The position numbers and the translations under genes were made by a program. The notes under the pieces were generated by a model. That model was not told where the DNA came from, searched no databases, and saw only the letters and a program-made list of their open reading frames with translations. A DNA stretch of 64,000 bases, taken from assembly GCA_944386715.1 (NCBI GenBank), contig CALXCD010000001.1, positions 8,141 through 72,140 on the forward strand, read 5' to 3'. The DNA is from an uncultured Clostridia bacterium (GTDB lineage Bacteria > Bacillota > Clostridia > TANB77 > CAG-508). Shown here one piece after another: positions 26,783-45,208 of the stretch (position 1 is its first letter; the number at the start of each line of letters is the position of its first letter).

Positions 26783-26828
26783 GGTTCCAGGTTTGGATGC
26801 CAATTTTTTGGCATTCAAACCTGGAACC
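26783..26828. repeat. Palindromic element copy 2: GGTTCCAGGTTTGGATGCCAA-TTTTT-TGGCATTCAAACCTGGAACC (45/46 identical to copy 1)
   Basis: Read directly. Sits between the dnaB stop and the tilS start. Confidence 0.85.
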
Positions 26829-26839
26829 AAAAGCAAAAT

Positions 26840-28175
26840 CTAATCATCAAATCTTTTTTCTAGATTCACAAATTTTGTATAGCTTCCTAACCATAATAAT
26901 TCTATTGTTCCTGTAGAACCACCTCTATGTTTTGCAAGTATTACTTCTGCAATGTCCTTTTTTTCACTATCTTGATTATAATAATCATCACGATATAAAA
27001 ACATAACAATATCAGCATCTTGCTCGATAGCTCCAGATTCTCTTAAATCTGAAAGCATAGGTCTATGGTCTGGTCTTTGTTCTACTGCTCTTGATAATTG
27101 TGATAAAGCAATTACTGGCACATTCAATTCTTTTGCCAAAATTTTCAAAGACCTACTAATTTCAGAAATTTCTTGTTCACGGCTACCGTTTCTCTTATTG
27201 CTTCCTTGTACTAATTGCAAATAGTCAATAACCACCATCCCAATATTTTTTTCTAATTTTAATTTTCTACATTTTGCTCTAATCTCCATCACAGAAATTC
27301 CCGGTGTATCGTCAATATAAATTTCCGCATCAGACAATGGTCCGGATAGCTCCAGCAAGTTTAGTCCAATCCTCTTCCTCTAATTTTCCAGTTCTTACTT
27401 TATTACTATCTACCATTGCTTCACTACACAAAATTCTATTTACCATTTGTTCTTTTGACATCTCTAGACTAAAAATAGCAACTGGTACTTTTGCTTTTAC
27501 AGCCGCATTTGCTGCAATATTAAGAGCAAAAGCAGATTTTCCCATCGCAGGTCTTGCAGCAATTAAAATTAATTCTGAACCATGAAAACCTGCCGTTTTA
27601 TAATCTAACTGTACAAAACCTGATGGAACACCTGTAATATGTTGTTTTCGATTATATAACTCTTCTAATTGTGTAAAACTATCTACTAAAATATCTTTAA
27701 TGGGTGTATAACCTTTTTGATTTTTATTTTGCATCATATTAAAAATTTTTTTCTCTGCCCCTTCCATGATGTCTTCTACATCCTCTGTTGGGTCATATCC
27801 TAATTCAATAATTTCATTAGCAGTTTTGATTAAATTCCTTAATGCTGCTTTTTCTTCCACAATTTTAATATATTTCATAGCATTTGCAGTAGTAGGAACT
27901 TTATCTGGCAGCTCTGCCAAATACTCTAATCCTCCTACCTGTTCAAATTTTCCCATGGTTTCTAATTCTGATTTAACAGTAATAATATCAATAGGTTCTG
28001 CTCTGTTATATAGATTCAAAATTGCTTCATATATTGCTTTGTTATCCTCACGATAAAAATCTTCTTGTTTTAATACTTCTATGGCTGAAATCACAGCATC
28101 TCTATCTGTTAACATACTACCAATTACTGCTTGTTCAGCTTCTAAATCATGAGGTGGTACTTTTCCTAATTCCAT
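26840..28175 (-). CDS. dnaB: Replicative DNA helicase DnaB, split into two overlapping ORFs by a 1-nt frameshift at about 27330-27358
   Basis: Upstream ORF has the N-terminal domain and Walker [17 protein letters not shown] and ends ...[10 protein letters not shown]. Downstream ORF begins [20 protein letters not shown] and has Walker B and the RecA-like C-terminus. An extra C in ATCCGGA reconciles the frames. Confidence 0.8.
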
Positions 28176-28209
28176 CTTTCCCTCCTCTTGCTTTACCTGT
28201 TATCTATTT

Positions 28210-28656
28210 TTATTCTGCCAAGACATCTACTTTTACTCTTCCTATAACTCCTTCGAAAAGTCTTATTTCTACTGTTCTTTCTCCTAAAGTCTTAATGGTT
28301 TCTTTCAAATCTATTTTCTTTTTATCTACATGAATTTGATATTGTTTTTCTAACACTTCTGCAATTTCTTTGGAAGATACCCCTCCAAATATTTTTCCAT
28401 TTTCTCCCGCTTTCACTTTAATTCTTAAAGAAATTTTAGAAAGTTTTTCTGCAACATGCATTGCTTCTTCCTTTTCTTGTTGTTTTTGATATTGCATAGA
28501 TTGTTGTTTTGCTTTCCATTTATTCATATTTTCATTATTAGCTTCTACCGCCAAATTTTTAGGAAATAAAAAATTACGTGCATAACCATCTGAAGCTTCT
28601 ATAACTTGGTCCTTTTTCCCTACCCCTTTAATATCTGCTTTTAAAATTACTTTCAT
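28210..28656 (-). CDS. rplI: 50S ribosomal protein L9
   Basis: 148-aa product MKVILKADIKGVGKKDQVIEASDGYARNFLFPKNLA. Confidence 0.92.
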   Translation of the reverse strand: MKVILKADIKGVGKKDQVIEASDGYARNFLFPKNLAVEANNENMNKWKAKQQSMQYQKQQEKEEAMHVAEKLSKISLRIKVKAGENGKIFGGVSSKEIAEVLEKQYQIHVDKKKIDLKETIKTLGERTVEIRLFEGVIGRVKVDVLAE

Positions 28657-28695
28657 TTATCTCACACCTTTCATTATTGTTACTAAAGTGGTATA

Positions 28696-30714
28696 TTAAT
28701 TTTCAATTTCTGAAAAATACTCATTGATTCTATTCATCAATTCTTGTTTCGTTTCTTCCATTGTCATACCTTCTACTTGTGCTCCTGCTAAGGTGATATG
28801 TCCTCCTCCACCTAGCTTTTCTAAAATAATTTGCACATTGATATCTCCAATAGAACGTCCACTAATACATATCTTATCACCTAAATTTCCTAATACAAAA
28901 GAAGCGGTAATATCACTAATTGTTAATAATTCATCTGCTGCTTTTGCACAAATAAGACTTGCATCCTTTTCCTTTTTTGCATATATCGCTATTGCTATCG
29001 TATCATTAACTATTTCTGCTTTTTTTACAATATCGGCAATTTTATTGAAACTTGCCAAATCACTTTGAAACCATTTTTTAACGCGGATAATATCCACACC
29101 ACATCTACGTAAATATGCAGCTGCTTCAAAAGTTCTTACCCCTGTTTTAAATGTAAAATTCTTTGTATCCATCATAATACCTGCATATAAACTTTCTGCT
29201 TCCATCGTTGTTAATTCAACTTTTGTTTCCGCATACTGTATCAATTCTGTTACTAATTCTGCTGCTGAAGAAGCATATACTTCTTGAAAAGTTAGCGTTG
29301 CTTTTTCAATAAAATCTGCACTTCTTCTATGATGGTCAATCACCACAATTTTATCAGTTTCTTCTAACAATTCAGGTGCTTCCACATAAGTTGATTTATG
29401 CGTATCTACAATAACCAACAAAGTTTCTTTATCTACATTTTCTATTGCCACTTCTTTACTAATCAATATATCTTCATATTCTTCTTCCTTTGCAAGTGAC
29501 TTTTTGAAATTTTGTAAAGTAGTTGTATTATTACTATCGATAATATACGCATTTTTGTTAAGACTTCTTGCTAAACGATAAATTCCCATACTAGAACCCA
29601 TAGAATCAATATCTGGATTTGTGTGTCCCATTATCATTACTTTACTTGCATCTTTGATTAAATTTTCTAAGGCATGTGCCACAATTCTAGCCTTCACTTT
29701 TGTCCTTTTTTCTACTTCTTGCGCTCTGCCCCCGAAAAATTTATAGATTTCGTTTTCTCTAATAACAGCTTGGTCTCCTCCTCGTCCTAAAACAATATCC
29801 ATAGCAGCTTGTGCAGATTTATATTTTTCTTTATCTGTTGCCCCCTCATTAGATACTGCTATACTTAGAGTAAATTGTATGTTTTCTTTTGGTGATATCT
29901 CTTTTATTTTATCTAAAACACTAAATTTATCCTCTTTTATTTTTTCTAGATATCTTTGTTCAAATAAATATATATATCTATCTCTATCTGACTTTATCAA
30001 AACACCATTGGTTTGGTCTGTCCATTCATAAATACATTTATCGATTTCAGCAATAATTTGTGGTCTTTCTTCACTTTCTAATTGTAACATTGTTTCCTCA
30101 TAATTATCTACCATCATAATAGTAACACAAGACTTAGAATCTTTATATTCTTTCTGTAATTTTTTATTTTCAGTTTCATCTAAAAAATACAAGATTATCA
30201 TATATTCTTGTGCTTTCTTTTTATCTTTATTTTTAGAATTAACAAATTTTCCAACGACTTTATAATAATTTTTTCCTATTTCTAATTGTCTAACAATATC
30301 TTTGTTGTTCTTATCTTCTCTTTTTTGAATTTCACTTTTAATATCTATTAATAAATCATTAATATAATTATTAATATCAATATTAGCAAATTCTGAAATA
30401 AATTTATTACTTTTCCATATAACATTTCCATCTGTTTCTAAAATAATTAAAGGAAATGGTGAATTAATCAAACTACTTTTAGCTGCTGAATCTACTGTTA
30501 AAGTTAAATCTTGCAAAGTCTCTGATATTTCGCTTTTCCTTTTTTTATTAGCATAATAGGTATATGCCATCACTAAAAAAAATACAGCAATGGCAGGTAT
30601 TATCATAACTTTATTTTCGATACAAATAATAATTAGTAAAACTAATATAATTCCTAAATATATTTTTGTTCTTGAAATGATATTTTCAAAAACTTTCCTA
30701 TTGGTATTTTGCAT
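28696..30714 (-). CDS. gdpP: Cyclic-di-AMP phosphodiesterase GdpP: 2 TM, PAS-like, degenerate GGDEF, DHH, DHHA1
   Basis: Two N-terminal TM helices. The DHH motif MGHTNPDIDSMGS and DHHA1 GGGGHITLAGAQ. Conserved yybT-rplI-dnaB arrangement. Confidence 0.85.
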   Translation of the reverse strand: MQNTNRKVFENIISRTKIYLGIILVLLIIICIENKVMIIPAIAVFFLVMAYTYYANKKRKSEISETLQDLTLTVDSAAKSSLINSPFPLIILETDGNVIWKSNKFISEFANIDINNYINDLLIDIKSEIQKREDKNNKDIVRQLEIGKNYYKVVGKFVNSKNKDKKKAQEYMIILYFLDETENKKLQKEYKDSKSCVTIMMVDNYEETMLQLESEERPQIIAEIDKCIYEWTDQTNGVLIKSDRDRYIYLFEQRYLEKIKEDKFSVLDKIKEISPKENIQFTLSIAVSNEGATDKEKYKSAQAAMDIVLGRGGDQAVIRENEIYKFFGGRAQEVEKRTKVKARIVAHALENLIKDASKVMIMGHTNPDIDSMGSSMGIYRLARSLNKNAYIIDSNNTTTLQNFKKSLAKEEEYEDILISKEVAIENVDKETLLVIVDTHKSTYVEAPELLEETDKIVVIDHHRRSADFIEKATLTFQEVYASSAAELVTELIQYAETKVELTTMEAESLYAGIMMDTKNFTFKTGVRTFEAAAYLRRCGVDIIRVKKWFQSDLASFNKIADIVKKAEIVNDTIAIAIYAKKEKDASLICAKAADELLTISDITASFVLGNLGDKICISGRSIGDINVQIILEKLGGGGHITLAGAQVEGMTMEETKQELMNRINEYFSEIEN

Positions 30715-30912
30715 GTGATTACTCCTTACATTTATTCTATTTTATTGTACTAGCAAAAGCATATTTTGTCAAGATTAATAAGTGTTTACCTGGGGAAATT
30801 TAAGCACGTTACAGAAGCATTACCATCACTATATAATATAACAATAAACACTAACCAAAATTCCCTTCTGCTACATAATTGTAATATGATTAAATTTCCT
30901 GGTAATATACTA

Positions 30913-30957
30913 AAATTCAGTATGTACTAAATTTTAATACATACTGAATTTAAATCA
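30913..30957 (-). terminator. Hairpin AATTCAGTATGTA / TACATACTGAATT then T-rich tract, downstream of the giant adhesin gene
   Basis: 13-bp stem read directly. On the minus strand it is followed by TTTTAGTATATT. Confidence 0.5.
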
Positions 30958-30984
30958 TATCCTATTAAATTTTTATTCATATAT

Positions 30985-33900
30985 TTAATATTCCATTGTA
31001 TAATATTTCCCGTCCGCTGATTTATTAAAAATAACTCTATCAGAATTAATTGTTATAACTGGACGTATACCATCTCCCTCTGGAAAAATAGTAGTAACTC
31101 CTGTTCCACTAAAAATTTCCCCATTTGCTTCTACATAATCAACTGCATCAGGATCCCAATCACTAATTAAAGGAGTTGCAAGAAGATAACGTGAAGAATC
31201 ATAAACATAATTAGACATGCCCTCTACATTTTTTAATTGATCCAACCTATATATTCCAGTTTCATCTTCAAATGTTTGAATTGTGTCTGTCGAAGATAAA
31301 TCTATGTTATATCTTGCTTTATTGATATTTGTTAAAGTTACCGTATTAAGCTTTACATTTCCGTTTTTAAATAAACTATTTCCCTTTAGCATAAACGGAT
31401 AATAATAGTCATAAACGTTACTTCCATTAGTAATAGAAATATAAGATCCTTTATTGTAACGCTCTTTTCCTTGTATTTCTCCATATTCAAATTCGATATC
31501 TCCCAAATTAGAATAAAGTCCAGCAGATACTGCTAAGCTATTATCACCAGCATAAGAAAACCAATCAGATGGCCATTCAAGTGCCTCTTCGAGTTCCTGT
31601 TGACCTAGTGCGTCTGTTACCCACCAATCATTATTTAGTTGAGAACCAAGCATATCAACCGCTACTTTTGCAGGTATCCCTGTACTAATTAATTTTACAT
31701 TAGAATAAGTTCCATCTTGATTATCTGTATAAGATAATAATCGCCATCCATTAGTAGTAGAATATTTATATTCTGGATAGTATACATCTGTATAAGCAAC
31801 ATCATATTTTACAAAATCTGCTGTTTCAGGTGGTTCTACATCATTAATTGTAATGGTATTACTTCCTGATACATCACTATAATTTCCATTTGTAGAATGA
31901 ATGTACCAATATACCGTAGTAGTTCCTGCTGAACTTCTAGAAGGCTTTGAAGTAGTTCCACTTGTTGAATAATTACTTGATGTTAGAGTACTTGATGTAC
32001 TATAATAAATATTACATCCATTTCTTGGTTCATTTACTACTAAAGTAATCGTATGACTATTTCCATCATAATCTCCAATATAATCTCCTGATGTTTTTTG
32101 AATTGCTTTTTTATTAATCGTAAATGCCTTTGTTGCATTTGTTAATGTATAGTTAGAAGTCTTTTTTCTTCCTCCTGTTACACTTTCTATACTTGCTGTT
32201 GATGTATGAGTTCCTGCACTAACTTCTGTTGTTCTTGTTATATTTAATGTTTCTCTACTTATTCCACTATCTGCACTTGCTGTCGGTGCTTGTGGTGAAC
32301 CATTATAAGTAAAGGTTGTCGTGCTTCCCCATGTTACTGATACACTCTTCTTATTTATTGTCCATGAAATACTTTTTGCTCCTGTTGTTCCATCACTCCA
32401 TGCATAATTTGATGTTGGTGTTGCTTTTGCTGTATATGTTCCTGCATCTATTGCTGATTGCGTTCCACTCCATGTTACTTGACTTCCTGTTACTCCTGTT
32501 TGTGTTGCACCATTATATGTTTTGTTTGCTGCCGATGCTGTTGCTGTTTTTGCTCTTGCTATTGTAAATTGCTTTGTATTTCCTGTTAATGTATAGTTTG
32601 ATGCTTTTCCTCTTCCTCCACTTACACTTGATATACTTGCTGTTGATGTATGTGTTCCTGCACCAATTTCTGTTGTTCTTGTAATATTAAGTGTTTCTCC
32701 ATAAATACCACTTGACGCACTTGCTGTTGGTCCTTGTGCTTTTCCATTGTATGTAAATGTTGTACTTCCCCATGTTACTGATACACTCTTTGGACTAATT
32801 CTCCAACTTAAATTTATGCTTGATGTGCTTCCATCTGACCATTGATAGTTGCCACTATCTTTTAGTGTTACAGTTGCTGTATAATTTCCTGCATCAGTTC
32901 CTGTATTTCCACTAATATTCATTGTACTTGAATTATATCCACTTACATTTAATGATTGTGTATTTCCATTATAAGTATAAGTTCCAGAAGCAGTTGGTTT
33001 TGCTACATTTATTTTAGTTACAGTAGCACTTCCATTATTAGTACTATCTGTAATATCCTTAAATGTTGCATTTGCATAGTTAGTTTTCTTAGCTGTTACC
33101 ACTACATAAATGTATTTTCCTACTAATCCATTACCTATCGTATAAGTTTTTCCTGTTGCCCCACTAATTGGTGTTCCTCCACTTGTTGAATTATATGTAT
33201 TAGAGTACCATTGATAACTTAATGTTGCATCTCCTGGATTTACATTTGTCTGAGCTGTTAAGGTTGAACCATATTGGTTGGTTCCTGTAATTGTTACACT
33301 TCCTGTAATTGTTGCATTTGTAATGTTAAATGCTTTTGTTGTATTGGTTAAAGTATAGTTAGAAGCTTTTCCTCTTCCTCCTGTTACACTTTCTATACTT
33401 GCTGTTGAGGTATAACTTCCTACATTTGTTCCTGTTGTTCTTGTTAAGTTAATTGTCTCTCCACTTACTCCACTTGTTGCTACTACAGTTGGTGCTTGCG
33501 CTTTTCCATTATATACGAAACTTGTTGTCTCTCCCCATGTTACTGAAATTTGTTTTGGATTGATTTTCCATCCTAATGATACTCCTGATGTAGTACCATC
33601 TGACCATTGATAATTGCTACTATCTTTTAATGTTACAGTAGCTGTATAATTTCCAGCATCTGTTCCTGTATTTCCACTTACATTCATCGTACTTGAATTA
33701 TATCCACTTAAACTTAATGTTTGGCTTGCACCATTATAAGTATAACTTCCAGAAACAGTTGGTTTTGCTACATTTATTTTAGTTACAGTAGCACTTCCAT
33801 TATTAGTACTATCTGTAATATCACTAAATGTCGCATTTGTATAGTTAGCTTTCTTAGCTGTTACTACTACATAAATATATTTTCCTACTAGTCCACTACC

Positions 33901-36900
33901 TATTTGATACGTTTTTCCTGTTGCTCCATTAATTGGTGTTCCTCCACTTGTTGAATTACTTGTATTAGAATACCATTGATAACTTAAAGTTGCATCTCCT
34001 GGATTGATACTAGTTTCTGCTGTTAATGTTGAACCATATTGGTTTGTTCCTGTTATCTTTACACTTCCCGTAATAGTTGCATTTGTAATAGTAAATGCTT
34101 TTGTTGTATTGGTTAATGTATAGTTAGATGCTTTTCCTCTTCCTCCTGTTACACTTGTTATACTTGCTATTGAGGTATAACTTCCTACATTTGTTCCTGT
34201 TGTTCTTGTTAAGTTAATGGTTTCTCCACTTACTCCACTTGTTGCTACTACAGTTGGTGCTTGTTCTTTTCCGTTATATACGAAACTTGTTGTCTCTCCC
34301 CATGTTACTGCTACTGATTTTGCATTAATTTTCCAACTTAAAGATACATTTCCTGTACTTCCATCTGACCATTGATAATTGCTACTATCTTTTAAGCTTA
34401 CGGTTGCTGTATAATTTCCTGCATCTGTTCCTGTATTTCCACTCACATTCATCGTACTTGAATTATATCCACTTAAACTTAATGTTTGAGTTGCTCCATT
34501 GTAAGTATAATTTCCTGTTGCAGTTGGTTTATTTAAGTTTATCTTAGTTACAGTAGCACTTCCGTTATTCGTACCATCTGTAATATCACTAAATGTTGCA
34601 TTTGCATAATTAGTTTTCTTAGCTGTTACCACTACATAAATATATTTTCCTACTAGTCCACTACCTATTTGATACGTTTTTCCTGTTGCTCCATTAATTG
34701 GTGTTCCTCCACTTGTTGAATTACTTGTATTAGAATACCATTGATAACTTAAAGTTGCATCTCCTGGATTGACACTAGTTTGAGCTGTTAATGTTGAACC
34801 ATATCGGTTTGTTCCTGTTATTTTAACACTTCCTGTAATCGTTGCATTTGTAATATTAAATGCTTTTGTTGCATTTGTTAATGTATAGTTAGAAGTTTTT
34901 CCTCTTCCTCCTGTTACATTCGTAATACTTGCTGTAGATGTATAACTTCCTACATCAATCTCTGTTGTTCTTGTAATATTAATGGTTTCTCCACTAACAC
35001 CACTTTCCGCACTTACTGTTGGTGCTTGTTCTTTTCCATTATAAACAAAACTTGTTGTATCTCCCCATATTACAGCCACTTCTTTTGCATTAATCTTCCA
35101 GCTTAAAGTCACATTAGATGTAGTTCCATCTGACCATTGATAGTTGCCACTATCTTTTAGTGTTACAGTTGCTGTATAATTTCCTGCATCAGTTCCTGTA
35201 TTTCCACTTACTGTCATATTTCCTGCATCAAATCCATTCAAAGTTAATGTTTGATTAGTTCCATTATAAGTATAATTTCCTGTTGCTGTTGGCTTTTGTA
35301 TACTTATTTTCATAACAGTTGCACTTCCGTTATTAGTTGGGTCTGTAATGTCACTAAATGTTACTTCATTATAATTGTCTTTTTTAGCTGTTACTACTAC
35401 ATAAATATATTTTCCTACTAATCCATCCCCTATTGTATAATCCTTTCTGTTTGCTCCATCAATTGGTGTTCCTCCATTTGTTGAATTAGTTGTATTAGAA
35501 TACCATTGATAAGTTAAAGTAGCATCTTCTGGATTTACATTAGTTTGGGCTGTCAAGGTTGAACCATATTGGTTGGTTCCTGTAATTGTTACACTTCCTG
35601 TAATTGTTGCATTTGTAATATTAAATGCTTTTGTTGTATTAGTTAGTATATAGTTAGCTGTCTTTTCTCTTCCTCCTGTTACACTTTCTAACTTAGCAGT
35701 TGAAGTATAACTTCCTACTTCTGTCTCTGTCGTTCTTGTCATATTAAGAGTTTCGCCATTAACACCACTTTCAGCACTTACTGTTGGTGCTTGTTCTTTT
35801 CCATTATAGACAAAACTTGTTGTTGTTCCCCATACTACTGCTACTTCTTTTGGATTAATTCTCCAGCTCAAAGTCACATTTGATGTAGTTCCATCTGACC
35901 ATTGATAGTTTTCACTATCTTTCAATGTTACAATTGCTGTGTAATCTCCTGCATCTATTCCAGTATTTCCACTAACATTCATTTTTTCTGCATCAAGTCC
36001 CTTTAAAGTTAATGTCTGAGTAGTTCCGTTATAAGTATAACTTCCTTCTGCTGTTGGTTTTTGTACATTTATCTTCATAACAGTTGCACTTCCGTTATTG
36101 GTTGGGTCTGTAATGTCACTAAAGCTTGCATTTCCATAGTTTGGTTTTTTCGCTGTTACTACTACATAAATATATTTTCCTGCTAATCCGCTTCCTACAG
36201 TATAATCTTTTTTATTCGCTCCATCAATTGGTGTTCCTCCACTAGCAACATTATTGCTACTAGAATACCATTGATAAGTTAAAGTTGCATCACTTGGATT
36301 TACTGTTGTTTCTGCTGTTAAAGTAGAACCGTATTGGTTTGTTCCTGTTATTTTCACACTTCCTGTGATAACTTGATTTGCTATACTAAATTCTTTTGTA
36401 GTTCCAATTAAAGTATAGTTAGAAACTTTTTCTCTTCCTCCTGTTACACTTTCCAATTTAGCAGTTGATGTGTAATTACCTACATTAGTTTCTGTCGTTC
36501 TAGTAATATTAAGTGTTTCACCTTCTACACCACTTTCGGCACTTGCTGTTGGTGCTTGTGGGTGTCCATTATATACAAAACTTGTTGTTTCTCCCCATAT
36601 TACTGGTATTTGTTTTGGATTTATTTTCCAACTTAGAGTCACATTAGCTATAGTTCCATCTGACCATTGATAGTTACTACTATCTTTTAATGTTACAGTT
36701 GCTGTATAATCTCCTGCATCAATTCCAGTATCTCCACTTATATTCATAACATTTGCATCATAACCATTTAAAGTTATTTTTTGATTTGTACCATTATAAC
36801 TATAAGTTCCAGAAACTGTTGGTTTTTCCAAGTTAGCTTTCATAACAGTAGCACTTTCGTTAGTATCACTATCTGTAATATCACTAAAGCTTACTTCACC

Positions 36901-39900
36901 ATAATTTGTCTTTTTCGCTGTTACCACTACATAAATGTATTTTCCTATTAAGCCATCTCCTACTGTATAATCTTTTTTATTCGCTCCATCAATTGGTGTT
37001 CCTCCTGTTGTACTTTCTGTTGTATTAGAATACCATTGATAGGTTAAAGTAGCATCTTCTGGGTTTACTACCGTTTGAGCTGTTAAAGTTGAACCGTATT
37101 GATTTGTTCCTATTATTGTTACATTTCCTACTATTTTATCATTTGTAATAGTAAATTCTTTTGTATTATTTGTTAAGGTATAATTAGAAACTTTTCCTCT
37201 TCCTCCTGTTACACTCTCAATACTTGCTACTGATGTATGTGTTCCTACATCTTTTGCCGTTGTTCTTACTACATTAATAACTTCTCCATTTACACCACTA
37301 GAAGCCTTTACTGTTGGAGCTTGTTCTTTTCCGTTATACACAAAGCTTGTGGTTATTCCCCATACAGCCTCTATACTTTTTGTATTAATTTTCCAGTCTA
37401 AAGTTAGCTCTGTCACGGTTCCATCTGACCATTGATAATTCTCACTATCTTTTAAGGATATTATTGCAGTATAATCTCCTGCATCTATTCCTGTATTTCC
37501 ACTTACATTCATAGTTGCTTGATCGAATTTATTTAAAGTTGCCGTTTGGTTTGTTCCGTTATATGTATAAGTTCCTGTAAGTGTTGGTTTTTCAACACTT
37601 ACTTTTATTACAGTTGCACTTTCGTTATTAGTTGGGTCTGTAATATCACTAAAGGTTGCCTCTCCATAATTAGGTTTTGTAGCTGTCACTTGTACATAAA
37701 TGTATTTTCCAATCAATCCCTTTCCTACTACATAATCTTTTTCGTTTGCCCCTTCAATTGGTGTTCCTTCTGTTGTGCTTTCTGTTGTATTAAAGTACCA
37801 TTGATAGGTTAAAGTAGCATCTTCTGGACTTACTACAGTTTGAGCTGTTAAAGTTGAACCATATTGATTTTTTCCTGTTATTTTAACATTTCCTGCTATT
37901 TTATCATTTGTAATAGTAAATTCTTTTGTTGTATTTGTTAAGGTATAGTTAGTTGTCTTTCCTCTTCCTCCTGTTACACTTTCAAGACTTGCTGTTGATG
38001 TATAGTTTCCTACAGTAATTGCTGTTGTTCTTGTAATATTAAGGTTTTCTCCATCTACTCCACTTTCTGCAGTTGCTGTTGGTGCTTGTTCTTTTCCATT
38101 ATAAACAAAGTTTGTCACATCTCCCCAAATTACCGCTATCGTTTTTGGATTAATTTTCCATGTAATTGTTTTTGCTTCTGTTGTTCCATCTTCCCATGTA
38201 TAATTTTCTTCTGGTGTTGCCGTTGCTGTATAAGTTCCTGCATCTATTGCTTCTATTGTTCCTGTTAATATAACATGGTTCCCATTAATACCTTTTTGAT
38301 TTGCACCATTATATATTTTTTCTTCCTCTGCTACTGCTGTTGCTGTTAGCGATTTTTGTACAGTTATTGTTTTGGTGATACTTGCCTCTTTTACTGTTTC
38401 TGTCCTTGCCATAATAGCTGTGATTTCTGAAGCTCCACCCACTGCTACTGGTGTTAATGTTCCTGTACTAGCATCTACTGTCAAATAGGTTGGATTAGAA
38501 GATTGGTAAGTAATTGCTCCTGCTGTTCCTCCTTCTCCACTCACCTTTACTGTTGCTTTTTTACTTGTATCACCATAGTATACAGTATCTGGTGTTGTAT
38601 TTTCCCATTCTAGTGTTCTAGTATATTTTTGTACGGTTATTGTTACTTCCTTACTTGTCTCTTTATAGTTATCGTTTCCTGCATCTGTTACTGTAACTAC
38701 TATTGTTTTATCTCCATCATCATTTATTGAGTTAGTTCCTGCTGTTAATGTATTTCCTTCTATTTTACTTCCTTGTGTTGTTTGATTTTTAATGCTATAA
38801 GTTACATTTCCTTTTGCATTACTTACTAATGTTGATAAATCTACTTTTTCTCCTACTTTAACTGTTTTACTTGTTACTGTCATTGGACTTTCTAATTTTG
38901 TTACTTCAAAACTATTGCTTACTTTTACTTCTTCTGCTCTATTTCCTGCTATATCTGTTACTCTTGTCCATAAGTAATAAGTTCCAGCTTTACAATCTTC
39001 CTTACTTACTGTTTCTCCATTTTCAAATGTCTTCCACTCTTCTTCTTTTGGTTGTTCGTCTTTACTTGTTGACCATGCATATTCTAATTTGTTTAATCCT
39101 GAACCTCCTTCATCTGCTGCTGTTAAAGTTGTTTTTATTGTTGCCTCTCCACTATCTGGCATTACCGTATTTCCCCCATTTGGAGTCAATGTTACAGTTG
39201 GTTTTATCTTATCAATATTACTTATTGTTATTTCTTTCGTTATTTCTTTACCTGATTCATCTTCTACTGTTACTGTTATAGTTTGATTATTTGTTTTTAT
39301 GATGACTTCTGTTTCATCTTTTATTTCGTAATCTATTCCTTCTGTTCCTGTTACTGTTATAGTTTTATCTCCTGTTATTCTATCATCATATTCTATTTTT
39401 ACTGTTACATCTTGGTTTGTCCAGTCTTTTGGATTTTGTGTTAATATGATTAAATTCTCTGTACTTGGTTTTACACTAAATTCTTTACTTACCTCAATTG
39501 CTTCATTTCCTGCTACATCTGTTATTCTTGTCCATAAATAATAACTTCCTTCTTCACAATCTTTTTTACTTACTGTTTGTTCATTTGTTAATGGTTCCCA
39601 TTCTTGTTCTGTTGGTCTTGTTGTATTTGAATTACTCCATGCATATTGTCGTGTATTTAATCCTGAACCTCCTTCATCTTTTGCTGTTACTTTCACTTCT
39701 ATTGTTCCATCTTCTGCTGATTGTTCAGTTGATGTATTAATTAATGTTTTTCCACAGTTTGTTCCCATAGAACATCCATAACCATTTATATCATAGTAAG
39801 TCGAATAACTTGCATGACTATCACATGTTACTGTTCCCCATTCTTGCCCACACTCATCACATTTCATCCAAACATTTTTAGTGGCTGGATTATTACAACC

Positions 39901-40596
39901 TACTACAACACATCCTGAACTTCCAGAATAAGATGTAATTCTATTTCCTCTTAATGTTCCTGAACATGTTTTCCTCTCCTCACAAGTTCCAGCACTAGTA
40001 CTATAATAACCTGAATGTGTTGGGCAATGATAATGCTCTTCTTTAAATGTAGCCTCACATACACTACAATAATACCCTGCTGTTTCAACAAAAAATTCTC
40101 CACCATTTGGATTTAATGTTACTGTTGGTTTTATTTTATCTATTCTTGTAATATCTGCCTTAGCACTCATATCTTTATATTCTGAGATTATTGTACAATT
40201 TTTTCCAATGATAAATTCCTGCTCATATTTTTTCTTAACACCATCAATTGTATAATATCTTTCATCTTCTGGAACTGAAGCCGGAAAAGTAATTTCTACT
40301 TTCAAATCCTGATTTGTCCATTGTTCTATTGGATAAACCTCCCCTGAAGATGCAAAATACAAAGCAATATGAATATTTCCATTTACTAAATCATTATATT
40401 CCTTTTCCATTTCCTTTTCATTACTGCTTTGTTCATAATGTTTTTGTATTGTTTTAACTTGTCTATTTTGTTCTGATACACTATTTACAGTATTGACATA
40501 AATTGCATAAGCAATAATTATGAAAAAAAGTATAGCTATTAAAACAAATAAAGTAATAGAACCTCTTTCTTTTCCATGATTTTTGAATTTACTCAT
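30985..40596 (-). CDS. Giant (3204-aa) repetitive surface adhesin: N-terminal hydrophobic anchor/prepilin-like segment, Cys/His-rich module, Ig-like modules, about 8 tandem 255-aa Y(N/D)G MBG-like repeat units
   Basis: Start set at the ATG at 40596, preceded by AGGAGAG. N-terminus MSKFKNHGKERG|SITLFVLIAILFFIIIAYAI. Repeat unit contains SFVYNGKEQAPT, QYGSTLTAQT and QWYSNT...KYIYVVVTAKK. The ORF-track N-terminal extension has no RBS. Confidence 0.8.
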   Translation of the reverse strand: MSKFKNHGKERGSITLFVLIAILFFIIIAYAIYVNTVNSVSEQNRQVKTIQKHYEQSSNEKEMEKEYNDLVNGNIHIALYFASSGEVYPIEQWTNQDLKVEITFPASVPEDERYYTIDGVKKKYEQEFIIGKNCTIISEYKDMSAKADITRIDKIKPTVTLNPNGGEFFVETAGYYCSVCEATFKEEHYHCPTHSGYYSTSAGTCEERKTCSGTLRGNRITSYSGSSGCVVVGCNNPATKNVWMKCDECGQEWGTVTCDSHASYSTYYDINGYGCSMGTNCGKTLINTSTEQSAEDGTIEVKVTAKDEGGSGLNTRQYAWSNSNTTRPTEQEWEPLTNEQTVSKKDCEEGSYYLWTRITDVAGNEAIEVSKEFSVKPSTENLIILTQNPKDWTNQDVTVKIEYDDRITGDKTITVTGTEGIDYEIKDETEVIIKTNNQTITVTVEDESGKEITKEITISNIDKIKPTVTLTPNGGNTVMPDSGEATIKTTLTAADEGGSGLNKLEYAWSTSKDEQPKEEEWKTFENGETVSKEDCKAGTYYLWTRVTDIAGNRAEEVKVSNSFEVTKLESPMTVTSKTVKVGEKVDLSTLVSNAKGNVTYSIKNQTTQGSKIEGNTLTAGTNSINDDGDKTIVVTVTDAGNDNYKETSKEVTITVQKYTRTLEWENTTPDTVYYGDTSKKATVKVSGEGGTAGAITYQSSNPTYLTVDASTGTLTPVAVGGASEITAIMARTETVKEASITKTITVQKSLTATAVAEEEKIYNGANQKGINGNHVILTGTIEAIDAGTYTATATPEENYTWEDGTTEAKTITWKINPKTIAVIWGDVTNFVYNGKEQAPTATAESGVDGENLNITRTTAITVGNYTSTASLESVTGGRGKTTNYTLTNTTKEFTITNDKIAGNVKITGKNQYGSTLTAQTVVSPEDATLTYQWYFNTTESTTEGTPIEGANEKDYVVGKGLIGKYIYVQVTATKPNYGEATFSDITDPTNNESATVIKVSVEKPTLTGTYTYNGTNQTATLNKFDQATMNVSGNTGIDAGDYTAIISLKDSENYQWSDGTVTELTLDWKINTKSIEAVWGITTSFVYNGKEQAPTVKASSGVNGEVINVVRTTAKDVGTHTSVASIESVTGGRGKVSNYTLTNNTKEFTITNDKIVGNVTIIGTNQYGSTLTAQTVVNPEDATLTYQWYSNTTESTTGGTPIDGANKKDYTVGDGLIGKYIYVVVTAKKTNYGEVSFSDITDSDTNESATVMKANLEKPTVSGTYSYNGTNQKITLNGYDANVMNISGDTGIDAGDYTATVTLKDSSNYQWSDGTIANVTLSWKINPKQIPVIWGETTSFVYNGHPQAPTASAESGVEGETLNITRTTETNVGNYTSTAKLESVTGGREKVSNYTLIGTTKEFSIANQVITGSVKITGTNQYGSTLTAETTVNPSDATLTYQWYSSSNNVASGGTPIDGANKKDYTVGSGLAGKYIYVVVTAKKPNYGNASFSDITDPTNNGSATVMKINVQKPTAEGSYTYNGTTQTLTLKGLDAEKMNVSGNTGIDAGDYTAIVTLKDSENYQWSDGTTSNVTLSWRINPKEVAVVWGTTTSFVYNGKEQAPTVSAESGVNGETLNMTRTTETEVGSYTSTAKLESVTGGREKTANYILTNTTKAFNITNATITGSVTITGTNQYGSTLTAQTNVNPEDATLTYQWYSNTTNSTNGGTPIDGANRKDYTIGDGLVGKYIYVVVTAKKDNYNEVTFSDITDPTNNGSATVMKISIQKPTATGNYTYNGTNQTLTLNGFDAGNMTVSGNTGTDAGNYTATVTLKDSGNYQWSDGTTSNVTLSWKINAKEVAVIWGDTTSFVYNGKEQAPTVSAESGVSGETINITRTTEIDVGSYTSTASITNVTGGRGKTSNYTLTNATKAFNITNATITGSVKITGTNRYGSTLTAQTSVNPGDATLSYQWYSNTSNSTSGGTPINGATGKTYQIGSGLVGKYIYVVVTAKKTNYANATFSDITDGTNNGSATVTKINLNKPTATGNYTYNGATQTLSLSGYNSSTMNVSGNTGTDAGNYTATVSLKDSSNYQWSDGSTGNVSLSWKINAKSVAVTWGETTSFVYNGKEQAPTVVATSGVSGETINLTRTTGTNVGSYTSIASITSVTGGRGKASNYTLTNTTKAFTITNATITGSVKITGTNQYGSTLTAETSINPGDATLSYQWYSNTSNSTSGGTPINGATGKTYQIGSGLVGKYIYVVVTAKKANYTNATFSDITDSTNNGSATVTKINVAKPTVSGSYTYNGASQTLSLSGYNSSTMNVSGNTGTDAGNYTATVTLKDSSNYQWSDGTTSGVSLGWKINPKQISVTWGETTSFVYNGKAQAPTVVATSGVSGETINLTRTTGTNVGSYTSTASIESVTGGRGKASNYTLTNTTKAFNITNATITGSVTITGTNQYGSTLTAQTNVNPGDATLSYQWYSNTYNSTSGGTPISGATGKTYTIGNGLVGKYIYVVVTAKKTNYANATFKDITDSTNNGSATVTKINVAKPTASGTYTYNGNTQSLNVSGYNSSTMNISGNTGTDAGNYTATVTLKDSGNYQWSDGSTSSINLSWRISPKSVSVTWGSTTFTYNGKAQGPTASASSGIYGETLNITRTTEIGAGTHTSTASISSVSGGRGKASNYTLTGNTKQFTIARAKTATASAANKTYNGATQTGVTGSQVTWSGTQSAIDAGTYTAKATPTSNYAWSDGTTGAKSISWTINKKSVSVTWGSTTTFTYNGSPQAPTASADSGISRETLNITRTTEVSAGTHTSTASIESVTGGRKKTSNYTLTNATKAFTINKKAIQKTSGDYIGDYDGNSHTITLVVNEPRNGCNIYYSTSSTLTSSNYSTSGTTSKPSRSSAGTTTVYWYIHSTNGNYSDVSGSNTITINDVEPPETADFVKYDVAYTDVYYPEYKYSTTNGWRLLSYTDNQDGTYSNVKLISTGIPAKVAVDMLGSQLNNDWWVTDALGQQELEEALEWPSDWFSYAGDNSLAVSAGLYSNLGDIEFEYGEIQGKERYNKGSYISITNGSNVYDYYYPFMLKGNSLFKNGNVKLNTVTLTNINKARYNIDLSSTDTIQTFEDETGIYRLDQLKNVEGMSNYVYDSSRYLLATPLISDWDPDAVDYVEANGEIFSGTGVTTIFPEGDGIRPVITINSDRVIFNKSADGKYYTMEY
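32560..38350. repeat. Tandem array of about 8 near-identical repeats of about 765 nt inside the giant adhesin gene
   Basis: The landmark string CCTCCTGTTACACTTTC(T/C)A..CTTGCTGTTGA recurs at about 32611, 33381, 34146, 34911, 35675, 36441, 37203, 37965. Confidence 0.85.
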
Positions 40597-40912
40597 TTTA
40601 CATTCTCTCCTATAAATATTTTTATGCTTTAACAATTCTAATTTAACAAAGCAAAATAAATATTTCAATGCTTTAATTTGGTAAAACCTATCTCCCTTTA
40701 TCAAAGCACTTACGGATTTCGTATTTCGTTTATCTTATTAGAAAAAATTAATTTTATTTTACATTTTTGTAATATTGCTGTAATTTATGCACAAAAAAGC
40801 CTTAAATATTCGATAAATGTCTTTTTTGCAAAAATGTAAAAAAATTTTTCTTGATTTTGCGAGTTTCTTTTGATATATTAATTTTAATTTATAGAGAGGA
40901 AAAATGTTATAA

Positions 40913-41458
40913 AAAAACAAGAAAATCATTATATCCGTAAGGATTGCTGTTATTGTTTTAATAGGATTTTTCATTTTTTTACTAATAAACAACCATAAAA
41001 ACAATACTTCTATAGACCAAAATATTTCCAATAATACTTCAACTGAAATAAATGAGATATCAACAGAGTCTGAATCTACGGTACCAACATTTACCCTAGA
41101 AAGTACACCAGATAATCCTATTGAAATGGACGGGGTAGAAGCCACTACTATCAAAATAAGTAATAATGCAGGAGATGTAAAAGTAGATACTATATTAAAA
41201 AACAATTCTGATGAAGATATACATGGGTTTTTTATCGAAATAAATTTACTAGATAAAGATAACAATATTATTACAACCCTTTCTGAAAATTCCGAAAAAA
41301 CTATAAAAGCTCATAGCGAACATGCCCTAACAAACTATATTACAGCATTAGATAACGCAGAAAATATAACAAATGCACAAATTGTAACAATGGAAAAAAA
41401 CAGTATTAAAAACATGTTAGAAAATAGGTTTCAAGATATAGAAATGATAAAAGAATAA
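40913..41458 (+). CDS. Membrane-anchored 180-aa protein with N-terminal signal-anchor; canonical ATG at 40904 is followed by an in-frame TAA at codon 3
   Basis: Strong RBS AGAGAGGA then ATG TTA TAA. The open frame resumes KNKKIIISVRIAVIVLIGFFIFLLINNHK... and runs to 41458. The first internal ATG is at 41126 (ORF-track entry). The antisense ORF 40759..41265 is low-complexity. Confidence 0.45.
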   Translation, partial: KNKKIIISVRIAVIVLIGFFIFLLINNHKNNTSIDQNISNNTSTEINEISTESESTVPTFTLESTPDNPIEMDGVEATTIKISNNAGDVKVDTILKNNSDEDIHGFFIEINLLDKDNNIITTLSENSEKTIKAHSEHALTNYITALDNAENITNAQIVTMEKNSIKNMLENRFQDIEMIKE

Positions 41459-41466
41459 TTAATACA

Positions 41467-41684
41467 TGAATCTGTCAAGGGGGATATTCCTTTTGGCAGA
41501 TTTCGTTATTTATCATAAAAACTAAAACTATATGAAAAAGTAGTTATCTATTCATAATTTGCAGACAAGACCCGGATTATTACACCCCAAGATTGCTTTT
41601 GTCAAAAAGTATGAATAGATAACTACTTTTTAAGTTATATATAAGTGAAATCTGCCAAAAGGAATATCCCCCTTGACAGATTTA
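41467..41684. mobile_element. MITE-like structured element, copy 2: perfect 35-bp outer IR (AATCTGTCAAGGGGGATATTCCTTTTGGCAGATTT / RC), perfect 22-bp inner IR, conserved core TTGCAGACAAGACCCGGATTATTACACCCCAAGATTGCTTTTGTCAAA
   Basis: Read directly. Fills the gap between the convergent stops of the 41458 gene and rpoC, so it may double as a bidirectional terminator. Confidence 0.6.
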
Positions 41685-41686
41685 CA

Positions 41687-44600
41687 TTATTCTATTATTC
41701 CAGAAACTTGTTCCAATTCTTCCTCTGTACTAATTTTTAAGTCTTGATATTTTTGCATTCCTGTTCCTGCTGGAATTAACTTACCAATAATAACATTTTC
41801 TTTTAATCCCACTAAATCATCAGTCTTACCTTTAATAGCTGCTTCTGTTAATACTCTTGTCGTTTCTTGGAAAGAAGCTGCTGACAAGAAACTATCTGTT
41901 GCAAGAGATGCTTTTGTAATACCAAGTAATACTCTCTTACCTGTAGCAGGACGTTTTCCTTCTTGTTTTGCTTGTTCATTTTTCTCTTCGAATTCATACA
42001 TATCTATTAAAGAACCTGGGAACATGTCTGTATCACCATTATCTTCTACTCTTACCTTTTTAAGCATTTGTCTACCAATTACTTCAATATGTTTATCATT
42101 GATATCAACACCTTGGTTACGATATACTTTTTGAACTTCTGAAATCAAGTATTCATAAACACCTTCTGGTCCTTTAATAGCTAATATTTCTGCTGGATTG
42201 ATAGAACCTTCAATTAAAGGCTCTCCTGCTTCTACCATATCTCCCTCTTTGACTTTCATCTTAGAACCAAATGGAATTGTATATGTTTTAGCATCATCTT
42301 TACTTGTAACAATAACTTCTTTCTTTTTCTTAGTTTCTTTAATTTTAACCTTACCATCTATTTCAGAAATAATAGCAAGTCCTTTTGGTTTTCTAGCTTC
42401 AAATAACTCTTCAACCCTTGGAAGACCTTGTGTAATATCTGCAACACCAGCAACACCACCAGAGTGAATAGTTCTCATTGTAAGCTGTGTACCGGGTTCA
42501 CCAATAGATTGTGCAGCAATGATACCAATCGCTTCTCCAATGGATACCAAATCTCTTCTTGCAAGTCCCATACCATAACATTTTTGACATACACCATGTT
42601 TTGAACGACATCCTAATACAGAACGAACTTTTAATTTTTCTATACCTGCTGCTACTATTTTCTCTGCAATAGCTTCTGTAATCATAGTATTGGTATCTAC
42701 AATTAATTCTTTTGTTTCTGGATGATATACATCTTCTACTACAAATCTTCCTAATAATCTTTCTTGCATTTTTTCAATAATTTGATTTCCATCTTTAATG
42801 TCATAAATAATAATACCATCATCTGTACCACAATCATGCTCTCTAACAATAATGTCTTGTGAAACATCTACTAATCTTCTTGTTAGATATCCTGAGTCAG
42901 CTGTTCTTAAAGCTGTATCAGAAAGTCCTTTACGAGCTCCATGGGCAGAAATGAAATATTCTAAGGCATCTAGACCTTCTGCAAAAGATGATTTAATTGG
43001 AATTTCTACTGCCTTACCAGTAGTACTTGCCATTAAACCACGCATACCTGCAATTTGTCTTAATTGGTTCATATTACCACGGGCTCCAGATTTAACCATC
43101 ATATAAATTGGGTTTAATTCATCAAAATTATCTTCCATGGCATTACTTACTTCTTTGGTAGTAGCTTCCCATACATTAATAACAGCATTATATCTTTCAC
43201 TATCTGTAATAAGACCTCTTGCATATTGTTTTCTAATATTTTCTACTTTGCTATCAGCTTCTTCTAATAATGCTTTTTTCGCTTCTGGCACTTGCACATC
43301 ACTCATAGAGAAAGTAATACCTGCTAAAGTAGAATACTTAAATCCTAATGCTTTAATATAATCAATTACCTCTGCAGACTCTGATAATCCATGAATTCTA
43401 ATAACACTTTCAATAATATTACCCATAGATTTTTTCATAACAGGGAAATTAATCTCATATTGGAAAGGATCTTTCTCTCTATCAATAAATCCTAAATCTT
43501 GTGGAATTCCTTGATTAAAGATAATTCTACCAACACTAGTTTCAATTTTTTGAGATTTCATCTCTCCATTTATTTCTTTTGTAATTCTAACATAAATTTT
43601 TGCATGAATTTCTACTTCATGATTTTCGAAAGCCATGATTGCTTCATCTGGGTCTTTGAAATATTTACCTTCCCCTTTTTCTCCATCTAATACCATTGTT
43701 AAATAATAACTTCCTAAAATCATATCTAGTCTAGGAACTGCTACTGGTCTACCATCTTGTGGTTTTAACAAGTTATTGGTAGATAGCATTAAATATCTAG
43801 ATTCTGCCTGTGCTTCTGGTGATAATGGTAAATGTACTGCCATTTGGTCACCATCGAAGTCTGCATTAAATGCCTCACAAACTAATGGGTGAAGTTTTAT
43901 TGCTCTACCTTCTACCAATACTGGTTCAAAGCTTTGTATACCTAATCTATGTAAAGTAGGAGCACGGTTTAGCATAACAGGATGGTCTTTAATAACTTCT
44001 TCCAAAATTCCCCATACTTCTGGTTTTAATCTTTCTACCATTCTTTTTGCGTTTTTAATATTTTGCGCAATACCTCTGCCTACTAATTCTCTCATGACAA
44101 ATGGTTTAAACAACTCTACTGCCATTTCTTTTGGAAGTCCACATTGATAAATCTTAAGTTCTGGTCCTACTACGATAACAGAACGTCCAGAATAATCAAC
44201 ACGTTTTCCAAGTAAGTTTTGACGGAAACGACCTTGTTTTCCTTTTAGCATATCAGATAAAGATTTTAATGGTCTATTTCCAGCACCAGTTACAGGTCTT
44301 CCACGTCTTCCATTATCAATCAAAGCATCTACAGATTCTTGTAACATTCTTTTTTCATTTCTTACAATAATTTCTGGTGCTCCTAATTCTAATAATCTTT
44401 TTAAACGATTATTTCTGTTAATAACTCTTCTATATAAATCATTTAAATCAGAAGTTGCAAATCTACCACCATCTAATTGAACCATTGGTCTTAATTCTGG
44501 TGGAATAACAGGAACTACCTGCATTACCATCCATTCTGGTCTATTTCCAGAAATTCTAAAAGATTCTACTGTATCTAATCTTTTTACAAGTTTTACCTTT

Positions 44601-45208
44601 TTTTGTTCACTTGCTCCCTCTAATTCTTTTTTGATAGAATCAGATAACTTATCTAAATCAACTTCTTCTAACAACTCTCTTAAAGCTTCTGCTCCCATTT
44701 TTGCTTTAAAAGAACCTCTTCCATATTTTTCTTCTGCCTCGTGATATTCTTTTTCATTCAATACTTGGCATTTTTCTAATCCTGTATCACCTTTATCCAC
44801 AACAATATAAGATGCAAAATAAATAACTTTTTCTAAATTTCTTGGTGAAATATCCAAAATCAAAGCAATTCTACTTGGGATTCCTTTAAAATACCAAATA
44901 TGTGCAACAGGTGCAGCAAGTTCGATATGTCCCATTCTCTCACGTCTTACCTTAGATTTCGTTACCTCAACACCACAACGGTCACAGACGATTCCTTTAT
45001 ATCTTACTCTTTTATATTTACCACAATGACATTCCCAGTCTTTTGTTGGTCCAAATATTCTTTCACAAAATAAACCATCTTTTTCTGGTTTTAAAGTTCT
45101 ATAATTGATAGTCTCTGGTTTTTTTACCTCACCTTTTGACCACTCTCTTACCTTCTCATCTGATGCGATTCCTATTTTTAACTTATTAAAAATATCTAAT
45201 TCGTCCAA
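41687..45208 (-). CDS. rpoC: DNA-directed RNA polymerase subunit beta-prime
   Basis: 1173-aa product with zinc-binding [21 protein letters not shown] and catalytic [12 protein letters not shown] start preceded by GAAGGGGGA. Confidence 0.95.

Follow-up and report, generated by a model that had tools for sequence, protein, structure and literature searches.

In a 64,000-nucleotide stretch from an uncultured Clostridia bacterium of the TANB77/CAG-508 lineage (GenBank assembly GCA_944386715.1, contig CALXCD010000001.1, positions 8,141 to 72,140; hereafter the window), a single giant open reading frame (ORF) on the minus strand encodes a protein of 3,203 amino acids, which is probably, although far from certainly, a fibrillar adhesin anchored in the membrane by an N-terminal module of pilin type. 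At the level of sequence, this 74-residue module is uncatalogued, sharply conserved, clade restricted and pilin-like, and hundreds of stand-alone mini-proteins consist of it. It is the architecture of the protein, with a predicted N-in/C-out anchor, some 32 β-sandwich modules and a distal nonrepeat domain, that supports an adhesin-like giant surface protein. A preliminary description of the gene had proposed a repeat-built adhesin with a prepilin-like N terminus; the adhesin-like architecture and a remote likeness to pilins stood up to analysis, while its MBG and N_methyl domain assignments and its expectation of copy-number variation or assembly collapse did not.

The ORF runs from an ATG at 40596 to a TAA at 30985-30987. 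We took this ATG as the start, rather than an in-frame TTG upstream (40704), because a GGAGAG ribosome-binding site lies 8 nt before it. The features of the gene, in window coordinates, are as follows.

30985 to 40596, minus strand: whole gene, 3,203 codons plus the TAA stop at 30985-30987; the same protein is found in ERZ24773341 and ERZ28614461.
40605 to 40610, minus strand: ribosome-binding site GGAGAG, 8 nt upstream of the ATG at 40596, read from the sequence.
40375 to 40596, minus strand: N-terminal module, residues 1 to 74, with a basic leader, invariant G12, hydrophobic helix and amphipathic segment; N38, Q43, I50, Y54 and Y67 are conserved.
40534 to 40572, minus strand: core motif of the module, K9-E-R-G-S-I-T-L-F-V-L-I-A21 (family conservation figures below).
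38353 to 40374, minus strand: six Ig-like modules outside the array, residues 75 to 748; modules 1 and 2 are duplicated as 3 and 4, followed by two Big_2-like modules.
39715 to 40077, minus strand: Cys/His-rich insertion in Ig-like module 2, residues 174 to 294, with CxxC...CxxH-type pairs and 12 of the 16 Cys of the protein.
33016 to 38370, minus strand: seven complete units of 765 nt (255 residues; A-B-C) in exact register, residues 743 to 2527.
31840 to 33015, minus strand: incomplete units A8-B8 and A9-B9 and a divergent DYDG module, without C modules, residues 2528 to 2919.
30988 to 31839, minus strand: C-terminal globular domain of 284 residues, residues 2920 to 3203, with motifs GWRLL, STGIPA, YLLATP and GIRPVI.

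The bulk of the protein is a tandem array. Self-comparison of the protein gave a peak at a lag of 255 residues, equivalent to 765 nt, and at the DNA level seven copies are spaced at exactly 765 nt with the reading frame intact. Every unit contains two Y-N-G modules (A and B) and one QWY...KYIYV.VTA module (C). Since the seven full units are followed by A8-B8, A9-B9 and the DYDG module, and the whole protein has 19 Y(N/D)G modules, the original count of about eight repeats was a fair one. The ORF, the periodicity, the unit anatomy, a Cys/His-rich stretch and the N-terminal leader had all been seen correctly, but the repeats cannot be called near identical: units are 66 to 89% identical in nucleotides and 55 to 88% in amino acids, with 11 to 34% of positions differing, and the longest exact nucleotide repeat within the gene is 142 nt. 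Similarity was highest between adjacent units and between those closer to the C terminus. The synonymous divergence between units (dS, 0.29 to 0.69) and its ratio to the nonsynonymous one (dN/dS, 0.24 to 0.41) indicate old duplicates under purifying selection that have not been recently homogenized.

An AlphaFold model of one unit rendered A and B as β-sandwiches, with predicted local distance difference test (pLDDT) values of 80 to 96. Compared with the PDB, this model matched tandem Ig-like arrays, namely, chitinase 4mb3 (E value of 2e-4), the grappling-hook protein GhpA 9fls and the extender of an RTX adhesin, 6xi1, and therefore we describe the stalk as a string of β-sandwiches. Stalks built from repeats are commonplace among giant surface proteins of bacteria. 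The Y(N/D)G modules had been regarded as MBG-like, and they do resemble MBG domains in their size (ca. 75 to 80 residues), an early Y-(N/D)-G, a late N-Y and their tandem arrangement in a giant surface protein. However, the hidden Markov models (HMMs) PF17883 and PF18676 matched neither the whole protein (E ≤ 0.01) nor one 255-residue unit (E ≤ 10), and MBG membership was rejected on that ground. What support there is comes from the generic Ig-like predicted fold; no MBG structure was among the listed PDB matches of the unit model.

Ahead of the array, the flanking Ig-like modules mentioned in the preliminary description turned out to be six, and the Cys/His-rich module is real. It is an insertion of ca. 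121 residues that the paralogous Ig-like module 4 does not have, and that one homologue of the giant protein (P0002) keeps at a different position, after the array. Neither the PDB nor Pfam gave a match to it; kinship with zinc fingers was discarded, as the best PDB hits (E values of about 2 to 3) were at chance level.

At the other end, the C-terminal 284 residues were modeled confidently (pLDDT of 91.6 and predicted template modeling score [pTM] of 0.90). This domain was found in more than 70 proteins, mostly of 300 to 600 residues, nearly all of which carry it behind a pilin-like leader and most behind the second leader type described below (type B). The DUF6273 model (PF19789) did not match the domain of the giant protein itself, and in two homologues it matched the last ca. 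80 residues only (P0135, 7.7e-7, above the cut-off; P0093, 0.0039). Against a set of viral structures, the C-terminal model gave weak matches to DUF6273, DUF1566 and C-type-lectin proteins (E values of 2e-3 to 0.6). Judging from this predicted fold, the domain may be a lectin-like binding domain and is presumed to be the ligand-binding tip.

A search with the first 377 residues of the giant protein returned almost no matches, and one homologue had only the first ca. 55 residues in common with the giant protein before continuing into an FGE-sulfatase domain. A profile of residues 1 to 74 recovered 82 proteins, most of them of 62 to 85 residues, in which the module is the entire protein. When 1.84 billion representatives were searched exhaustively with HMMER, 1,685 clusters reached an E value of ≤1e-3 and 756 reached ≤1e-10. 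In all the family proteins found in this way, from 62 to 6,477 residues long, the module was N-terminal, and 55% of 202 inspected members had 100 residues or fewer. The passengers of 51 longer members were all of extracellular types (Listeria-Bacteroides repeat, Laminin_G_3, GLUG, Big_2/Big_12, FGE-sulfatase, CBM_2 and choline-binding); a further passenger was a phage-baseplate-type Gp10_C domain.

The family motif is K-x-E-K-G-S-I-T-L-F-V-L-I-A. Counting from the Gly, conserved positions are K(-4), E(-2), K/R/N(-1), G (100%), S+1 (89%), T+3 (95%), L+4 (97%), F+5 (98%) and V+6 (95%). The Gly was invariant in 48 of 48 aligned and 202 of 202 motif-bearing members (median position, 11), and the sequence after it is uncharged for 22 to 32 residues (median, 26); conserved positions extend 40 residues past the helix. 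In the giant protein, the transmembrane-like segment (residues 13 to 34) is the only hydrophobic one, with positive charges before it and an acidic stretch after it, and no LPXTG motif was found.

The distribution of the module is narrow. Among GTDB genomes, taking one per species, the motif appeared at 53 loci, all of them in metagenome-assembled genomes of uncultured gut Clostridia (human, ruminant, rabbit and chicken), and the module-carrying genome "Ca. Merdicola" belongs to TANB77/CAG-508. The module is absent from Pfam, NCBIfam and PHROGs and was not found in IMG/VR. A phage origin was rejected, with no relative in IMG/VR and only matches of unknown function in PHROGs; phrog_37900 matches the repeat unit of the giant protein (1.8e-13). 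Among the other candidates for the module, SAG1386/EF1546 (NF042931; E value of 2e-5, 25 bits versus a cut-off of 80) was put down to composition, namely, a transmembrane helix combined with a charged helix, and so were the matches to ComGE, FtsL and DivIC.

Related loci (designated L plus a number) showed how the module is deployed. In relatives with an rpoC 81 to 93% identical to that of the window, a module gene takes up the corresponding place downstream of rpoC, and at several loci gdpP comes next. The product in this slot varies in length, from 75 to 80 residues (L011 and L017) through 985 to 2,600 (L019, L021 to L024, and L030) to more than 3,400 (L016 and L034). Other loci have tandem arrays of three or four module paralogues of ca. 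200 or ca. 530 residues each (L045, L050 and L056) or a gene for the module alone with a module-plus-passenger gene behind it (L009 and L034; in L009, 62 residues and then 237 with Gp10_C).

Putting these elements together, we infer the following arrangement. The module, with its short basic leader, invariant Gly, hydrophobic helix of ca. 22 to 26 residues and amphipathic helix, would be inserted N-in/C-out and would hold the protein in the cytoplasmic membrane; we assign the anchor to the N-terminal helix because the protein has no other hydrophobic segment and no LPXTG. The next ca. 2,850 residues would form a rod of about 32 Ig-like modules (6 unique, 7 × [A-B-C] and 5 more). At ca. 3 to 4 nm per Ig-like module, the extended rod would measure ca. 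100 nm, and it would project the DUF6273/DUF1566-like (lectin-like) C-terminal domain away from the cell to bind its ligand.

Fibrillar adhesins of Gram-positive bacteria consist of a stalk of tandem Ig-like domains and a terminal adhesive domain. The giant protein is similar to them in its size, its Thr/Ser/Gly/Asn-rich composition, the tandem β-sandwich stalk (seven 255-residue units, five further modules and six Ig-like modules) and the single distal nonrepeat domain, and it has a surface anchor in the predicted N-terminal transmembrane helix. It is unlike them in that this anchor is an N-terminal helix instead of a C-terminal LPXTG or wall-binding domain, which places the adhesive domain at the C terminus, and in that its stalk and tip domains have no Pfam or NCBIfam match above threshold.

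Several observations count against a membrane-anchored fibrillar adhesin. No curated model of Pfam or NCBIfam recognizes any part of the protein; in Pfam the whole protein had only a subthreshold match, to Sde0182_C, and in NCBIfam the best match was ZirU_fam, with 50 bits versus a cut-off of 100. The C module was poorly modeled (pLDDT of <65). The model of the C-terminal domain had no significant neighbor in the PDB (best E value, 0.2), and the lectin-like assignment of the tip depends on fold matches below significance. Finally, a plain membrane anchor explains neither why GS[IV]TLFVLI, at the cytoplasmic end of the helix, is nearly invariant nor why the module stands alone in about half of the family.

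The protein could instead be a true modular pilin of a type 4 filament, with the leader clipped after Gly12 by a prepilin-type peptidase and the helix becoming part of a filament of Tad-like or type IV-like kind, an alternative that we consider possible but doubtful. The leader-only proteins of 62 to 85 residues would then be Flp-like major subunits, and the Glu5-less giant would be located at the tip as an adhesin. The module does have the layout of a type IV pilin with a class III signal (basic leader, Gly at -1 and hydrophobic helix directly after), as the preliminary description had noticed: the leader ends at G12 and is followed by the only hydrophobic helix of the protein. Across the family the short leader always ends in Gly, ahead of the long uncharged run, and the motif is conserved exactly at the position where a prepilin peptidase would cut. 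The genes also behave in a pilin-like manner, in tandem paralogue arrays and small-plus-large pairs (L009, L034, L045, L050 and L056).

Profile comparisons placed this likeness at a remote level. N_methyl (PF07963) and TIGR02532 did not match the giant protein or eight family members, even at E ≤ 10, and N_methyl membership, suggested for the N terminus, was rejected. The same genomes, however, contain a second leader, type B, with the pattern G[IV]TLIALV[VI]TIIVLLILAG. An hhalign comparison linked the module to type B with an E value of 1.7e-5 and a probability of 79%, with a one-residue gap after the Gly, and the type B profile found only type IV pilins in the PDB (PilA, 0.001; MshA, 0.0012; geopilin, 0.0016; PilE1, 0.01). 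Against N_methyl, type B scored 12 to 19 bits, the best values of 17.5 to 19 falling just below the cut-off of 21.2. Several members of the module family gave recurrent subthreshold matches to Tad (PF13400; E values of 0.04 to 0.3, 12 to 15 bits versus 22.3) and TadE (PF07811; E values of 0.04 to 0.05), in a constant register with the G at profile position 1. The resemblance of the module to pilins is thus real, if remote, and with the pilin-like behavior of the family it is what survives of the prepilin-like N terminus first described. Type B is represented in the window as well, by a 692-residue ORF at 52236-54314 (minus strand) with the leader MRSFKEKEMKENGVTLIALVVIIIILLILAGITIATLTGDNSVLKNANKA, which is the more canonical of the two pilin-like leaders and has Ala instead of Glu at +5. 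This ORF has no Pfam match, but PHROG 37900 matches both its residues 229 to 474 and the repeat unit of the giant, so the two proteins share modules.

The best PDB match of the module itself was an archaellin precursor, 5z1l_A, in the right register. KKG-(x)-I-(x)-TLIVFIAMV aligns with EKGS-I-TLFVLIAML, and neither has Glu5. The E value (0.46) does not reach significance, however; the organism is a bacterium, and genes of archaellum type were not seen.

Against a pilin, the missing Glu5 pointed out in the preliminary description is a property of the whole family, with F at +5, V at +6, no acidic residue in the helix and Glu at +5 in no member, and the small proteins would therefore be unusual as polymerizing subunits. 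No pilin model reaches its threshold. The machinery was not detected either: a Pfam search of all ORFs of at least 100 residues in the window found no assembly ATPase (T2SSE type), platform protein or A24 peptidase, and when 1.15 Mb around 69 related loci (10 kb to either side) were scanned for motifs with regular expressions, no T2SSE-type ATPase, platform protein, A24-like prepilin peptidase or other pilus gene was found. The neighbors are housekeeping genes, the recurrent ones being rpoC, gdpP, dnaB, a gene for a 426-residue protein and, by eye, subunits resembling pyruvate:ferredoxin oxidoreductase. We also know of no pilin with a passenger of 340 kDa.

Known systems offer partial parallels, some of them in favor of a pilin. 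TANB77 genomes have a conserved Tad-like pilus cluster whose pilin-like genes adjoin CpaB, TadZ, TadA and TadBC; the pilin-like proteins have one N-terminal transmembrane helix, and one of them has a TadE/PilV-like structure (Kim et al. 2024, PMC11680825). This cluster and the module come from the same kind of organism, uncultured low-GC gut Clostridia, and "Ca. Merdicola" ties the module to TANB77/CAG-508 itself. Unlike the genes of the cluster, the module genes found here never adjoin these components, and the published cluster lists no prepilin peptidase (PMC11680825), which counts against a pilin. Tip subunits of type 4 filaments characteristically have no Glu5, and pilins of modular build, onto which adhesive domains are grafted, are an established means of making pili sticky (PMC10191384). 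The tip minor pilins of the GspK/PulK and PilK/PilX types cap the filament, the expected place for an adhesin, and resemble the module in having a basic leader up to Gly and a Glu5-less helix (PMC10191384). They differ in that the whole module family lacks Glu5, small members included, and we found no sequence or fold relation to their globular domains. The closest parallel in architecture is provided by the modular type IV pilins PilB and PilC of Streptococcus sanguinis (PMC8179133 and PMC9934059), going by the accounts summarized in PMC10191384. They too are from a monoderm and combine a pilin-type N-terminal helix, common to small and large proteins, with unrelated adhesive modules. According to these accounts, they have a canonical class III signal and a pil locus and were shown in pili, whereas the giant protein has no Glu5, N_methyl match or linked machinery and its passenger is many times longer (3,129 residues).

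A more specific proposal, which we consider unlikely but worth stating, is that the module represents an undescribed branch of type 4 filament subunits confined to uncultured gut Clostridia (TANB77 and relatives). The proteins would be processed by a prepilin-type peptidase after the Gly, the module-only ones would polymerize without Glu5, like Flp or archaellins, via Tad-like machinery, and the fusions would be displayed on the filament. If so, the module-passenger fusions, which reach 3,203 residues here and 6,477 in another protein, would be by far the largest modular pilins known.

It is very improbable that signal peptidase I cleaves the N terminus as a standard Sec signal peptide, with the protein released or held noncovalently on the wall. 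A basic n-region followed by a hydrophobic stretch, and the absence of a sortase motif, would fit such a signal, but the uncharged run after the Gly is too long for the h-region of a signal peptidase I substrate, there is no AxA-like site after it, conservation extends 40 residues beyond the helix, and no wall-binding domain was detected with Pfam.

The repeats raise the question of whether the array is real. Gene calls in two further ENA assemblies, ERZ24773341 and ERZ28614461, which derive from different samples, include the identical 3,203-residue protein. The contig of locus L002 is 100% identical to the window across 12.9 kb and may share its source, but that of L001 is clearly an independent assembly, with 26 differences over 17,916 positions and no gap; within the 9.6-kb gene there was one difference, which is synonymous. 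As the same protein occurs in an independent assembly, in an undisturbed frame and with units that diverged long ago, we see no sign of collapse or of copy-number polymorphism within the species, and neither the rapid repeat-number variation nor the likely assembly collapse that had been predicted was borne out. The least probable explanation of all is therefore an artifact in which repeats were collapsed or misjoined and the true copy number is different; the sources are short-read metagenome assemblies and the 765-nt period exceeds the read length, but the recurrence of the protein in two other samples, the gap-free alignment to L001, the divergence of the units and the exact register and frame all speak against it.

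The differences between L001 and the window (26806-44721) were clustered. The final 60 nt of the L001 contig hold eleven of them; rpoC has another eleven, of which eight fall in 43175-43529, and gdpP has three within 40 nt.

Between species, copy number does differ. In the closest relative found (L006, with a gdpP 94.5% identical to that of the window), the giant gene (region L006 1-10246) encodes 4,867 residues with at least eight of the same 255-residue units, up to 82% identical to those of the window. Its C terminus is different: where the protein of the window has the GWRLL domain, it has an Ig-like module, a pair of YQWY modules and a Gly-rich β-helix-like domain. A separate 81-residue module-only gene follows the giant gene. 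These differences show domain shuffling and tip swapping between close species.

The gene order around the giant gene is rpoB, rpoC, giant gene, gdpP, rplI, dnaB, tilS and ftsH, all housekeeping neighbors on the same strand. The window has a GC content of ca. 30%, and its rpoC is 89% identical to that of Clostridium sp. CAG:440, a presumed member of TANB77. An Rfam search of the window gave no match, and promoter and terminator scans around the giant gene performed no better than on shuffled sequence.

Divergent from the giant gene, at ca. 40908-41458 (plus strand), there is a gene with a good ribosome-binding site (GAGAGGAAAA) and an ATG, yet with a TAA at codon 3 (ATG TTA TAA AAA AAC...). 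Beyond this stop the frame runs through a transmembrane helix and an Ig-like ectodomain, of which gene callers give only the last 110 residues; by eye, the gene resembles a 169-residue gene located after the module-only gene in L003 (10246-10755). Between the end of this ORF and the rpoC stop, a hairpin of ca. 35 nt (AAATCTGTCAAGGGGGATATTCCTTTTGGCAGATTT) is present in two inverted copies, at 41468-41503 and ca. 41650-41685, with a second palindrome nested between them. They had no Rfam match; a small repeat element or terminators acting in both directions are the probable interpretations.

At 26840-28175 (minus strand), dnaB appears as two overlapping ORFs of 281 and 172 residues. L001, an independent assembly, has the same split, and so does the related species L006 (281 and 177 residues), while L011 and L014 have an unsplit dnaB (444 to 445 residues); it could be a conserved, perhaps programmed, frameshift or a true split. 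Two dockerin proteins are encoded on the minus strand at 17625-19838 and 19867-23532 (one a papain-like Peptidase_C1 with dockerin, the other a BspA-type leucine-rich repeat protein with dockerin), and L006 has a dockerin protein too. They imply a cohesin-dockerin display system besides the helix-anchored proteins. Finally, a SpoIIE homologue at 62144-63997 (minus strand) shows that this bacterium, for all the reduced look of its low-GC genome, carries sporulation genes.

The 74-residue signature is more conserved than the passengers that it carries. With ca. 1,700 protein clusters, it labels a large share of the surface proteins of gut Clostridia that cannot yet be grown, a lineage to which TANB77 belongs; the "pilin-like" proteins of that order have recently been tied to the response to cancer immunotherapy. 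A mere anchoring role would leave the conservation of the module to be explained. If instead it is a signal for processing and assembly, it would represent a new class of pilins; its motif, the invariant Gly and the stand-alone small subunits would then offer a direct handle for predicting, expressing and localizing the adhesins of these bacteria.

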